Part shown: in pieces, positions 23,734-63,593 of the stretch
Position numbering within the stretch: position 1 is the first letter of the stretch
Layout of the letters: each line of letters starts with the position of its first letter
Source: Candidatus Peregrinibacteria bacterium
GTDB lineage: Bacteria > Patescibacteriota > Gracilibacteria > UM-FILTER-43-11
Direction of reading: 5' to 3'
Assembly: GCA_016934215.1 (NCBI GenBank)
Contig: JAFGTE010000033.1
Location: 8,781-72,780, forward strand
DNA length: 64,000 nucleotides
Made by a program: the position numbers and the translations under genes
The notes under the pieces: generated by a model
Seen by the model: the letters and a program-made list of their open reading frames with translations, nothing else
What the model was told of the DNA's origin: nothing
The model's database searches: none

Positions 23734-23788
23734 ATAATAAAAAATAAGGATATATCGTCCTTAGTCCTTACTATCTAGTCTTACTATT

Positions 23789-27706
<3,918 letters not shown>

Positions 27707-27763
27707 AGCCATTCTTAGGGCTAAGTAGTAAGGACTAAGAGAGATTTTAATTTCAATCCAATT

Positions 27764-48375: not shown

Positions 48376-48404
48376 TTGACACTAAAAATTCTATTTGCTA
48401 AAAT
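48376..48404 (+). promoter_or_regulatory. Near-consensus sigma70-like promoter candidate for tuf.
   Basis: TTGACA (48376-81), a 17-nt spacer and TAAAAT (48399-404) lie 40 nt upstream of the tuf ATG. Confidence 0.5.
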
Positions 48405-48444: not shown

Positions 48445-49638
48445 ATGGCTGAAGGAAAATTCGATCGCAGTAAGCCACATGTAAACGTTGGTACCATTGG
48501 TCACGTGGATCATGGTAAAACCACTCTTACCGCTGCTATTACTGCTGTTGCCGCTGCGAAAATGGGCGGCATTAACAAAGCCGTTGCATTTGATCAGATC
48601 GACAATGCGCCGGAAGAAAGAGAACGTGGGATTACCATCGCTACGTCTCACCAGGAATACGAAACCAGTAAGCGTCATTACGCTCACGTAGACTGTCCTG
48701 GTCATGCTGACTATGTAAAGAACATGATTACAGGCGCAGCACAAATGGATGGTGCCATTTTGGTTGTATCTGCGGCTGATGGACCTATGCCACAGACCCG
48801 TGAACACATTCTGCTTGCCCGTCAGGTAAATGTACCTTATGTCGTTGTTTTTCTGAACAAGTGCGATATGGTGGATGATCCTGAACTTCTTGATCTTGTA
48901 GAGATGGAGGTTCGTGAGCTTCTGACGAAATACGAATTTCCGGGTGACGATATTCCTATTGTCCGCGGTTCTGCTCTTAAGGCACTTGAAAACCCAACCG
49001 GTCCGGATGCTGAGCCTGTTGTTGAACTGCTTGCTAAACTGGATGAATATATTCCGCAACCAGAACGCGCTTTGGATAAAGAATTCCTAATGCCTGTTGA
49101 AGATATCTTCTCTATCAAAGGTCGTGGTACGGTGGCTACCGGTCGTATTGAACAAGGTGTCGTGAACGTGAACGATGAAGTAGAAATTGTTGGTCTTAAG
49201 CCTACCCGAAAAGTGGTGGTTACCGGTGTTGAAATGTTCCGCAAACTGCTGGATCGTGGCGAAGCCGGTGATAACGTAGGACTTCTCCTTCGCGGTGTGG
49301 AACGTGATGAAATCGAAAGAGGCCAGGTGTTGGCAAAACCGGGTTATATTACCCCCCACACTGAATTTACGGCTGAAATTTACGTTCTGACCAAAGAGGA
49401 AGGCGGACGCCATACGCCATTCTTTAAAGGTTACAAACCTCAGTTCTATATTCGAACCACCGATGTAACCGGTGAGGTTCATTTGCCTGCCGGAACCGAG
49501 ATGGTGATGCCTGGTGATAGTATCAACCTTGATATCACTCTTGGTAAGCCTATCGCGATGGACGAAGGTACCCGCTTCGCTATTCGTGAGGGAGGCCGCA
49601 CGGTTGGTGCCGGTGTGGTTACCAAAGTGAAGAAATAG
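48445..49638 (+). CDS. tuf: Elongation factor Tu.
   Basis: Conserved blocks are [41 protein letters not shown] and NKCD. Confidence 0.98.
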
Positions 49639-49647
49639 ATTTTTAGC

Positions 49648-49666
49648 CCCCCCGCTAAGCGGGGGG
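49648..49666. terminator. GC hairpin downstream of tuf, a weak terminator or attenuator candidate.
   Basis: CCCCCCGC-TAA-GCGGGGGG forms the hairpin. T-runs are not immediately adjacent on the + strand. Confidence 0.35.
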
Positions 49667-49756: not shown

Positions 49757-50086
49757 ATGGCTGAAAAAAAGAAGGAAAGTACCCAGCGCATTCGCATCAC
49801 CCTCAAAGCTTTCGATCATACGATTATCGATAAAGCTGTTGAAACCATCATACAAACCGCGGAACGCACGGGGGCTATTGTGGCTGGGCCCATTCCGTTG
49901 CCTACCAAAATCAAGAAATTCACCATCAATCGTTCCACTTTCATTTCCAAAGATGCCCGTGAACAGTTTGAAATGAGAATTCACAAGCGGTTAATTGATT
50001 TGCGTGAGACTACCTCTGCCACCATTGAAGCGCTGACTAATCTTTCTTTGCCGGCCGGCGTGGATATTGAAATTAAGATGCTCTAA
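49757..50086 (+). CDS. rpsJ: 30S ribosomal protein S10.
   Basis: [41 protein letters not shown] matches S10. Confidence 0.95.
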
Positions 50087-50089
50087 TAG

Positions 50090-50123
50090 AAGGACTAAGT
50101 AGTAAGTAGTAAGGACTAAGTAG
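50090..50123. repeat. Left block of the GGACTAAGTAGTAAG-family repeat flanking the four-helix-bundle gene.
   Basis: The block is AAGGACTAAGTAGTAAGTAGTAAGGACTAAGTAG. Positions 50091-50106 pair with 50512-50527 over 16 bp, including one G-U. Confidence 0.8.
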
Positions 50124-50143
50124 AATTTAAGTGAATAATAAGT

Positions 50144-50494
50144 ATGAAATCGTTCAAAGAGGCTATTGTGTGGCAGAAGAGTTATAAACTCACTCTGTTC
50201 ATTTACCGAATAACTGCTCAGTTCCCAAGGGCTGAAGAATTTGGTTTAAAATCGCAGTTGCGTAGAGCTGCTGTGTCTCTGATATCTAATTTTGCAGAAG
50301 GGTTTAAGCGTATCAGCTATAAAGAGCGTATTCAGTATTACAAGATGTCTGAGGGTTCTTTGGAAGAGATAAAGTGTCAAACGGAGTTATGTAAGGATTT
50401 AGGTTATCTGAGTTTGAAGATTTATGGTCAATTGGAGGTGTTGGAAGAAGAAGTTGGTAGATTGCTATGGCGTTGGATAAGCGTTCAAAAATAG
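50144..50494 (+). CDS. Four-helix-bundle protein of the 23S rRNA intervening-sequence protein family.
   Basis: Family-typical sequence is present: AIVWQKSYKLTLFIYRITAQFPRAEEFGLKSQLRRAAVSLISNFAEGF.R.SYKE..QYY.MSEGSLEE. Confidence 0.85.
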   Translation: MKSFKEAIVWQKSYKLTLFIYRITAQFPRAEEFGLKSQLRRAAVSLISNFAEGFKRISYKERIQYYKMSEGSLEEIKCQTELCKDLGYLSLKIYGQLEVLEEEVGRLLWRWISVQK

Positions 50495-50527
50495 GTACTT
50501 ACTACTTAGTTCTTACTACTTAGTTCT
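50495..50527. repeat. Right (inverted) block of the same repeat family.
   Basis: The block is GTACTTACTACTTAGTTCTTACTACTTAGTTCT. Its reverse complement is AGAACTAAGTAGTAAGAACTAAGTAGTAAGTAC. Confidence 0.8.
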
Positions 50528-50566
50528 AATTCTGGACAATTCGTCCAAAAAAAGTCCATTTTTCCC

Positions 50567-50594
50567 TTGACTTTGGCCTTTTCGCAGGTAAAAT
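50567..50594 (+). promoter_or_regulatory. Sigma70-like promoter candidate upstream of rplC.
   Basis: TTGACT (50567-72), a 16-nt spacer and TAAAAT (50589-94) are present. They are enclosed by the 9-bp inverted repeat GTCCATTTT (50554-62) / AAAATGGAC (50590-98). Confidence 0.4.
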
Positions 50595-50672
50595 GGACAG
50601 GCAAAAATCGTTTTAAGTTAGTCGCGAGGTCTATCCGCTGCGGTGGAAAAAACCTCCTTAACCTCTAAAAAA

Positions 50673-51251
50673 ATGCCCGGAATAATCGGAAAAAAATTAG
50701 GAATGAGCCAAATCATTCAAGATGATGGCTGTGTGATCCCTGTCACTTTCGTCACATGCGAACCCAATGAGGTTGTGCAGATCAAAACGGAAGAGACAGA
50801 CGGATATCCGGCGATAGTCCTAGGATTTGATGCGTATAAGAATCCTTCCAAGAATAGAAAGTTTAAAGCAATAAAGGAATTCCGCGTCGAAAATACAGAA
50901 GGCTATAAAAAAGGCCAAAAGATTTCTGTCGAGAGCCTCAAGGAAGTTAAAGCCATCACTGTTACCGCGTATTCCAAGGGAAAGGGGTATCAGGGGGTGA
51001 TGAAACGGCATAAATTTGCTGGCGGCCCCGAAACCCATGGTTCCGTATTCCATCGGGAACCCGGTTCGGTTGGTACCTGTGCCAAGCCTGGTCGGGTCAT
51101 GAAGGGGAAGAAACTGCCTGGTCAGATGGGAAATGCTCAAGTCACTCTTAAAAATCGTCCTCTTATCTCAGTGATGGCTGATAAAAATCTTCTGGCTGTC
51201 AAAGGCGGTGTACCTGGGGCCAACAATTCCTATGTTTATATTAAATTCTAA
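50673..51251 (+). CDS. rplC: 50S ribosomal protein L3.
   Basis: MPGIIGKKLGMSQI...GKGYQGVMKRH.F.GGP.THGS matches L3. I preferred the ATG at 50673 over the track's GTG at 50643. Confidence 0.93.
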   Translation: MPGIIGKKLGMSQIIQDDGCVIPVTFVTCEPNEVVQIKTEETDGYPAIVLGFDAYKNPSKNRKFKAIKEFRVENTEGYKKGQKISVESLKEVKAITVTAYSKGKGYQGVMKRHKFAGGPETHGSVFHREPGSVGTCAKPGRVMKGKKLPGQMGNAQVTLKNRPLISVMADKNLLAVKGGVPGANNSYVYIKF

Positions 51252-53022: not shown

Positions 53023-53030
53023 GGAATAAA

Positions 53031-53073
53031 GACTAAGTAATAAGTACCATTTGTTAACTTAGTCCTTACTACT
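53031..53073. repeat. Hairpin-forming copy of the GACTAAGTA-family intergenic repeat between rplB and rpsS.
   Basis: GACTAAGT (53031-38) pairs with ACTTAGTC (53057-64). The flanking sequences AATAAGTAC and CTTACTACT are repeat-family sequence. Confidence 0.7.
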
Positions 53074-60759: not shown

Positions 60760-60829
60760 TAATAAGTAGCGAAGACTCAATATTAAGTATTTATTTGATT
60801 CTGCACTATTACTACTTAGTCCTAATTAA

Positions 60830-63561: not shown

Positions 63562-63593
63562 TTTTTGTTTTGAATTTTCAATTTTGAATTGTT

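Follow-up and report, generated by a model that had tools for sequence, protein, structure and literature searches.

The window analyzed here, a stretch of 64,000 nucleotides from contig JAFGTE010000033.1 of a Candidatus Peregrinibacteria genome, carries a small cassette between the ribosomal protein genes rpsJ and rplC: a single gene of the PF05635 family inside a long stem of two inverted 7-nt-repeat arrays, an arrangement like that of an intervening sequence (IVS) of rRNA (Table 1). The genome that holds the window (G000) comprises ~1.01 Mb in 34 contigs, is 95.8% complete, and was compared with four congeners (G001 to G004) and with relatives of the same bacterial family (other G numbers; L numbers denote loci). 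PF05635 was named for open reading frames (ORFs) inside 23S rRNA IVSs, which RNase III excises at a bracketing stem. The 116-aa protein encoded by the cassette matches PF05635 with 110.5 bits (E = 5.8e-32; cut-off, 33.8) and TIGR02436 with 101.5 bits (cut-off, 24), scores so far above the cut-offs that the four-helix-bundle gene seen between rpsJ and rplC by a first-pass annotation, made from the DNA letters, stands. Judged by its sequence, the protein is a member of this "23S rRNA IVS protein" (S23p) family, and the family predicts a four-helix-bundle fold. The core motif of the family as summarized, after Lin et al., in PMC3936711 (R-x3-S-x3-N-x2-E) is present as RAAVSLISNFAE, and the pattern is invariant across eight orthologues. 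The only solved relative found by sequence is XCC0516 (PDB 2GSC; E = 3e-15 over residues 9-89; five chains), and a solved PF05635 relative is described as a homopentameric ring in an account that follows Lin 2006 (PMC4990558).

Table 1. Features of the rpsJ-rplC region and further arrays of the cassette's repeat unit in the window.
Feature	Position	Strand	Remarks
tuf	48445-49638	+	From the ORF list; upstream of rpsJ
rpsJ (ribosomal protein S10)	49757-50086	+	PF00338, E = 3.4e-33; stop codon adjoins the left arm
Left arm	50087-50127	+	~5 units of TAAGGAC / TAAGTAG, purine-rich on the sense strand; starts 1 nt past the rpsJ stop
Leader with motif TAGAATTTAAGTGAAT	50121-50143	+	From upstream flanks of orthologues
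Four-helix-bundle gene, 116 aa	50144-50494	+	PF05635 / TIGR02436; between rpsJ and rplC
Right arm	50492-50534	+	~4 inverted heptamer units; starts at the TAG stop of the 116-aa gene
Palindrome TGGACAATTCGTCCA and A-run	50532-50556	+	Right edge of the variable segment; alignment A2
rplC promoter	50567-50594	+	TTGACT-16-TAAAAT, 10/12; independent of the cassette
rplC leader	50595-50672	+	Conserved helix GCGAGG ... CCTCC; ends in CCTCCTTAACCTC just before the ATG
rplC	ATG at 50673	+	PF00297
ORF-less hairpin of the cassette unit, rplB-rpsS spacer	53028-53073	+	From alignment with G001-G004
Single ORF-less array of the cassette unit, ssb-rpoC spacer	23757-23776	-	
Single ORF-less array of the cassette unit, just after rpoC	27716-27744	+	
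Short array of the cassette unit	60812-60827	-	2 nt upstream of the next ORF

Both arms are read by Tandem Repeats Finder (TRF) as period-7 arrays of about four copies each (4.0 on the left), and a repeat search aligns 50091-50122 with 50496-50527 over 32 nt at 84% complementarity or, in another register, over 19 nt at 95%. The inverted copies marked earlier at 50090-50123 and 50495-50527 are therefore recovered. Because the arms are periodic, several pairing registers are possible, among them the 16-bp pairing of 50091-50106 with 50512-50527, with one G-U, that had been proposed and that can be read directly in the sequence. The best arm duplex comprises 36 pairs (4 G-U) at -37.1 kcal/mol, compared to -14.4 ± 3.4 kcal/mol (minimum -27.2) in 500 shuffles of the right arm, and its sole bulge, of 7 nt, equals one surplus repeat unit on the left arm. 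The minimum-free-energy fold of 50080-50540 is closed by the arms, and the cassette has the complementary termini around an ORF by which the closing stem of ORF-bearing rRNA IVSs is recognized. It is not inserted in an rRNA helix, lying between rpsJ and rplC and not inside a 23S or 16S gene, and an Rfam scan of the window returned two tRNAs only. The cassette was also considered as an intrinsic (Rho-independent) terminator, which is ruled out: no terminator-like site (a short GC-rich hairpin followed by a U-run) was predicted between 50087 and 50566, and the right arm is followed by AATTCTGG.

The cassette closes the tuf-rpsJ unit on its 3' side, and rplC has an independent promoter farther downstream. 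A promoter is predicted before tuf (48376-48404; 11/12), none was called for the 116-aa gene, and no terminator was predicted before the rplC promoter, so that read-through from the tuf promoter is the simplest expectation for the gene. The separate promoter proposed for rplC by the first-pass annotation is borne out by its score and by conservation of its core irrespective of the cassette: all seven genomes of alignment A2 (G000 to G004, L066, and L082) share CTTGACTTT ... GGTAAAAT unchanged. The leader of the 116-aa gene holds the motif TAGAATTTAAGTGAAT, which is conserved in three orthologues (L067, L068, and L082) and in part in L066. The motif may act as a -10-like box or belong to a translation-initiation region; within 50121-50143, no promoter of the sigma-70 type was called. 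In the tuf-rpsJ spacer, at 49647-49666, lies a strong G+C hairpin (C7-GCTAAGC-G6) with no T-run after it that may be an attenuator or a processing site.

Homology with the four congeners ends at the rpsJ stop and returns at 50530, just past the right arm (query breakpoints 686 and 1131). All four lack the cassette, and their rpsJ-rplC gaps of 720 to 1380 nt contain antisense genes for membrane proteins or lipoproteins instead. In the metagenomic orthologues L067 and L068, the cassette lies between rpsJ and an antisense CDP-alcohol-phosphatidyltransferase-like gene, which is followed by rplC; G003 and G004 have that antisense gene without the cassette. The antisense gene of these four loci encodes ~225 aa with weak resemblance to CDP-alcohol phosphatidyltransferases, and in G003 its stop overlaps the rpsJ stop on the opposite strand. 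Compared with L068 in alignment A1, the segment missing from G003 and G004 comprises precisely left arm, leader, and ORF, and a relic of the right arm (TAGTCCTTATCA / TAGTCTTTGCC) persists at the place of the L068 right arm, now within the 3' end of the antisense gene. The relic, together with the gene tree described below, therefore speaks for the cassette having been lost by the congeners and not acquired by G000.

Elsewhere in the family, the two ribosomal protein genes are usually far apart. Among 25 other family loci around rpsJ, rplC lies within ~350 nt in 3 and beyond the stretch examined (~1.5 kb downstream where the contig allows) in 15. Directly after rpsJ, relatives have intrinsic terminators (many), arrays together with terminators (G013, G019), or an ORF-less inverted-array hairpin (G005). 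Short-period arrays run from the rpsJ stop in L057 (G005), L045 (G013), L047 (G019), and L063 (G006) despite there being no PF05635 gene at these sites; the G005 hairpin consists of inverted octamer arrays, in G013 two direct heptamer arrays flank an intrinsic terminator, and G019 has an array followed by a terminator. Since the genes are usually distant and rplC has its own conserved promoter, rpsJ and rplC are already uncoupled across the family. The suggestion that the stem is what uncouples them had to be given up: cassette-free congeners keep the rplC promoter, the genes lie apart in relatives, and terminators follow rpsJ there.

Two further elements lie between the cassette and rplC. The palindrome TGGACAATTCGTCCA, just upstream of the rplC -35 box, is kept in congeners with and without the cassette and might serve as an operator, or terminate transcription of the congeners' antisense genes. 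The rplC leader is conserved across genera; its end, CCTCCTTAACCTC, resembles the 3' end of 16S rRNA and can pair with the upstream GCGAGG. In L066, GGAG/CTCC replaces the GAGG/CCTC of the others, which is a compensatory change. The leader helix is a candidate regulatory helix of the operon that starts at rplC.

The cassette is old at this site. G000 has one assembled PF05635 gene, and the nearest protein among 5.8 billion is 73% identical, with no near-identical copy. Of the ten nearest homologues whose genomic context was looked up, seven (P0002, P0003, P0005, P0006, P0007, P0008, and P0024; 59 to 73% identical) directly follow rpsJ, and the other three (60 to 63% identical) lie in unrelated contexts. 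PF05635 copies in G024 and G029, which belong to another genus, also directly follow rpsJ, the G029 copy with an internal stop. A tree of 90 proteins places all eight rpsJ-linked genes in a single clade (SH-like approximate likelihood ratio test [SH-aLRT], 84; one label change, with 0 of 500 shuffles as low). Between orthologue pairs, nonsynonymous divergence (dN) is 0.2 to 0.33 while synonymous sites (dS) are saturated, which indicates that purifying selection has kept the gene for a long time. With the single protein as query, a search of public contigs from genomes and metagenomes gave only five loci. By sequence comparison, the cassette at rpsJ is old and has been inherited vertically within this Peregrinibacteria family. 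Shared rpsJ synteny, the single clade, and saturated dS reject a recent insertion. The earlier idea that the architecture had been transplanted, or was mobile as a unit, consequently fails on a recent time scale, given also the single copy in G000 and the seven of ten homologues at the same site. A survey of relatives at this site, which had been put forward as a check, gave a divided answer: presence and absence do vary within the genus, as a mobile element would have it, but the orthologues are otherwise long-standing residents after rpsJ.

Over the same period, the arms have been rewritten without losing their match. All eight orthologues keep arms of 19 to 33 nt placed at both stop codons, and in 8 of 8 the right arm starts at the TAG stop. 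The unit itself differs: TAAGGAC/TAAGTAG in G000, L066, L067, and L068; TAACGAC/TAGCGAC in L077; TAGCGAT/TAACGAT in L070 and G024; and TAAGGGG in L082. Every change of unit among the orthologues affects both arms. An all-against-all matrix shows the arms of G000, L066, and L068 to be interchangeable; L077, L070, and L082 form good duplexes only with their own arms, at -40.6, -31.9, and -52.9 kcal/mol, respectively, compared to -8 to -37 kcal/mol with the arms of other orthologues. The two arms evolve in concert, complementarity being maintained while the unit drifts.

Arms of this kind are common around PF05635 genes in the family. In 30 loci of relatives, inverted short-period arrays flank most of the genes on both sides, with a period of 7 or occasionally 8 or 9 and with sequences that vary from locus to locus; about two-thirds of the PF05635 genes sampled in relatives are armed, and some loci have an upstream array only. 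Arm energies were compared across 37 loci by pairing the left and right flanks of the same locus and the flanks of different loci. Own-arm duplexes averaged -39.8 kcal/mol, compared to -25.4 kcal/mol for cross-locus pairs (Mann-Whitney p = 5e-13), and own-arm values lay under the 5th percentile of cross pairs at 17 of 37 loci. Some PF05635 matches fall in open frames of 344 to 412 aa (L025; L029; G020:C69:4177-4482; G027:C2:58341-58652; G019:C13:88104-88409), which may be fusions with, or read-through into, a downstream gene.

The first-pass annotation compared the cassette with the IVSs of 23S rRNA, and the comparison is upheld: a bracketing stem around a PF05635 ORF is the architecture of the Coxiella 23S IVS (PMC4990558), and it recurs around PF05635 genes in relatives. 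The IVS of Coxiella burnetii lies at helix 45, has a 28-bp stem and GACAGAT heptamers, and is cut by RNase III inside the stem; Leptospira also has an ORF-bearing 23S IVS (PMC4990558). Like the Coxiella element, the cassette has a PF05635/S23p gene in the loop of a long terminal stem, tandem heptamers by the ORF (in Coxiella, between stem and ORF), and an overall length of ~430 to 450 nt. This bacterial family also has such inserts in its own 23S genes. No 23S gene is assembled in G000 or the four congeners, but in each of the seven relatives whose 23S gene is assembled, an insert occupies one conserved position (L108 to L114, from G024, G029, G009, G021, G025, G014, and G027), assigned to helix 25 from the flanking 23S sequence rather than by model alignment. 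The insert ORF encodes 128 to 137 aa, starts with MTYKDLNVYQRAYKVAIDLH, is a divergent PF05635 member (E = 7e-12 and 9e-8), and is 24 to 32% identical to the operon-type genes of the family with which it was compared. A unique-sequence stem of ~25 bp closes the insert, varying between genera yet staying paired. Because every one of these seven 23S genes carries an insert and no 23S gene is assembled in the congeners, the latter may hold an unassembled PF05635 copy.

The differences are equally clear. The host transcript here is a predicted tuf-rpsJ mRNA unit and not rRNA, the stem is built from heptamer arrays whereas that of the family's 23S insert is unique sequence, purifying selection acts on the protein, in contrast to the decay of the Coxiella ORF, and RNase III cleavage, experimental in Coxiella, is inferred for the cassette. 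A second precedent is the hmw1 5' untranslated region (UTR) of Haemophilus influenzae, in which a transcribed 7-nt-repeat array forms an mRNA hairpin cut by RNase III and repeat turnover depends on transcription and processing (PMC12721329). Unlike the cassette, hmw1 is repetitive in one arm only, encloses no gene and has no four-helix-bundle protein, and serves phase variation of an adhesin. The GGGNATC arrays of Xanthomonas and Nostoc are transcribed arrays of ~4 units that lie between codirectional ORFs near stops and starts (PMC4692102). They share with the arrays described here their short length of ~4 heptamers and their enrichment between codirectional ORFs, but are G-rich, read as quadruplex forming, and linked to no protein family, whereas the units here are AT-rich. 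PF05635-family genes have been noted inside cas operons (PMC3936711), and 16S and 23S rRNA gene inserts carrying the domain have been catalogued in bacteria of the candidate phyla radiation (CPR) (PMC11270868). No description of an operon-borne, heptamer-armed cassette was found in the literature, the nearest being PMC4990558, PMC4692102, PMC3936711, PMC11270868, and PMC12721329. The rRNA module is already published. What the locus described here contributes is an orthologous series at one site, a within-genus loss with a relic left behind, a unit-specific contrast in dispersed arrays, and evidence that heptamer arrays as such can do without the gene.

We favor, with about as much confidence as doubt, processing of the arm stem by RNase III on tuf-rpsJ read-through RNA as the mechanism of the cassette. 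The gene would be read through from the tuf promoter, placing both arms on one RNA, and the arms would pair into a double-stranded stem of ~26 to 36 bp. The genome encodes an RNase III (C11:24534-24917; E = 3.5e-40), which, on the precedents of the 23S IVS and the hmw 5'-UTR hairpin, would cut the stem. The tuf-rpsJ message would thereby receive its 3' end, at a place where relatives have an intrinsic terminator, and a separate message for the four-helix-bundle protein would be released or destabilized. As the arms adjoin stop codons, ribosomes terminating on rpsJ and on the cassette gene would briefly open the stem at its outer and inner end, respectively, tying processing to translation.

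Several observations weigh against processing of this kind. The whole 461-nt region folds no better than shuffled sequences (z = -1.24), and arm pairing alone stands out. The TAGAAT-containing leader between the left arm and the ATG could be a promoter, and transcripts from it would miss the left arm. The RNA excised in Coxiella is labile and probably yields no protein (PMC4990558); if so, cleavage alone leaves the conservation of the protein encoded here unexplained. A strand comparison that might have revealed selection on the sense RNA was negative: across the 37 loci, sense and antisense arm duplexes are equally stable (10 versus 10 loci, p = 0.65), and counts of G-U and A-C mismatches show no overall bias. 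Without a strand bias in pairing, complementarity could be kept at the level of DNA, and RNA and DNA levels are not told apart.

An alternative hypothesis is that the arrays are binding sites, in DNA or RNA, for a homopentameric protein that regulates itself at the arms and acts at dispersed arrays, protein and unit coevolving. Several observations speak for it. The unit AAGGACTAAGTAG (≤2 mismatches) occurs 11 times in the window, compared to 0.9 expected, and G000 has ~15 further ORF-less sites of the unit in either orientation, three of them hairpins; most fill the spacer between two codirectional genes to within 2 to 12 nt. The pattern TAAGNANTAAGNAN is enriched in G000 over the congeners lacking the gene (35 versus 4, 1, 3, and 7, the congener counts being at the level of the reversed-pattern control), and the hairpin between rplB and rpsS is missing from all four, whose spacers there measure 10 to 22 nt. 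The pattern TARCGANTARCGAN, conversely, occurs 163 times in G024 and 35 times in G029, matching their TAGCGAT-type rpsJ-linked arms, and 0 times in G000. The four to five units per arm are also comparable to the pentamer of the solved relative. The density of period-7 arrays is, however, as high in G003 as in G000 (TRF; 8.4 per 100 kb over the 238 kb scanned, versus 6.3), and a second unit, RATTNAA, is common in G000, G003, and G004 (24, 29, and 23 matches), the last two of which have no assembled PF05635 gene. The within-genus contrast counts as a single evolutionary event, the G024 arrays are not assignable to one gene because that genome has 11 PF05635-family genes, and a second such gene inside an unassembled 23S IVS may exist in all five genomes. 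We therefore consider specific binding unlikely to be the function of the arrays.

As a general claim, that arrays need the gene failed on the array density in G003 and on the shared RATTNAA arrays, although the unit-specific contrast is strong. RATTNAA sites lie at C14:75371-75398, C14:77463-77490, and C16:29194-29221 of G000 and at 63568-63590 of the window, and RATTNAA arrays occupy many sites in G003 and G004, including some inside the congeners' ribosomal protein operon. Heptamer hairpins of other units, with no ORF in the loop, occur at C14:38444-38489 and C34:28709-28746 of G000 (TGGTTCG/CCACGAA and AAACTCG/TTTCGAA). Heptamer arrays as such are thus independent of the PF05635 gene, which tempers an attractive idea. 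In a bolder reading, protein and arrays would form a matched system, in which the protein would recognize its own unit and promote the formation or maintenance of arrays and hairpins of that unit in operon spacers across the genome. Oppositely oriented arrays on separate mRNAs complement one another as well as the cassette arms, and several lie 2 to 12 nt from start codons. If such a system exists, which seems to us rather improbable, the arrays would act as RNA-processing or antisense-pairing sites, one gene beside rpsJ would tune many operons, and the long-noted excess of heptamer repeats in bacterial genomes would also be explained.

It is also quite doubtful that the cassette is mobile selfish DNA, its inverted arrays being terminal repeats for insertion and excision, catalyzed in trans or by hairpin-mediated recombination, and this copy representing a single insertion into a permissive spacer. 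The region between rpsJ and rplC is a hot spot of variation, the cassette varies in presence within one genus with sharp edges at its arms, ORF-less hairpins of its unit occur at new sites in G000, and genes 60 to 63% identical lie in unrelated contexts. The family is moreover multicopy in relatives, with 1 to 16 matches per ~1-Mb genome in 25 of 30 genomes of the family. The eight rpsJ-linked genes, however, have gone very long without movement, being one clade with saturated synonymous divergence. G000 has one assembled copy, the best match elsewhere being 73% identical; no target-site duplication was seen at the cassette edges; and no transposase or reverse transcriptase was detected, nearby or, for the reverse transcriptase, in a profile search of the genome. 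Because the arms differ among orthologues, they offer no conserved end for an enzyme to recognize. A transposon or miniature inverted-repeat transposable element (MITE) was set aside on the single copy, the differing arms, and the lack of a visible edge duplication.

Similarly doubtful is a neutral origin, in which slippage-prone arrays build up in spacers and 3' ends, hairpin-templated repair keeps inverted pairs alike, and the gene merely resides in such a spacer. Many relatives have heptamer or octamer arrays, single or inverted, after rpsJ with no PF05635 gene; arrays fill operon spacers in either orientation; congeners without an assembled PF05635 gene have arrays of other units; and arm pairing shows no strand bias. 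Neutral accumulation would nonetheless have to account for eight orthologues that all keep arms exactly at the two stops despite saturated neutral sites, and for the roughly two-thirds of sampled PF05635 genes that are armed. Long inverted repeats are prone to deletion, and their persistence argues for selection.

A diversity-generating retroelement (DGR) can be dismissed: the protein and the DGR accessory protein Avd (bAvd) belong to one superfamily (PF22296; E = 5e-11, 43.5 bits, just above the 40-bit cut-off), but the score for the NF033474 equivalog is 46.5 against a cut-off of 80, no template and variable repeat pair is present, and the reverse transcriptase profile PF00078 has no match in the G000 genome at its 95.8% completeness.

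To our knowledge, the purpose of rRNA IVSs and of S23p proteins has been an open question from about 1990 onward. Work on Coxiella led to the published view that the ORF can be dispensed with (PMC4990558). A natural comparison set for the question in this family consists of orthologues whose arms differ, congeners without the cassette as a result of loss, and ORF-less hairpins of the same unit. Because the cassette described here is mRNA borne, has long been kept at one site, encodes a protein under selection, and has arms that were rewritten yet still match, it would appear to be a working part of gene expression in these bacteria and not a passing parasite.

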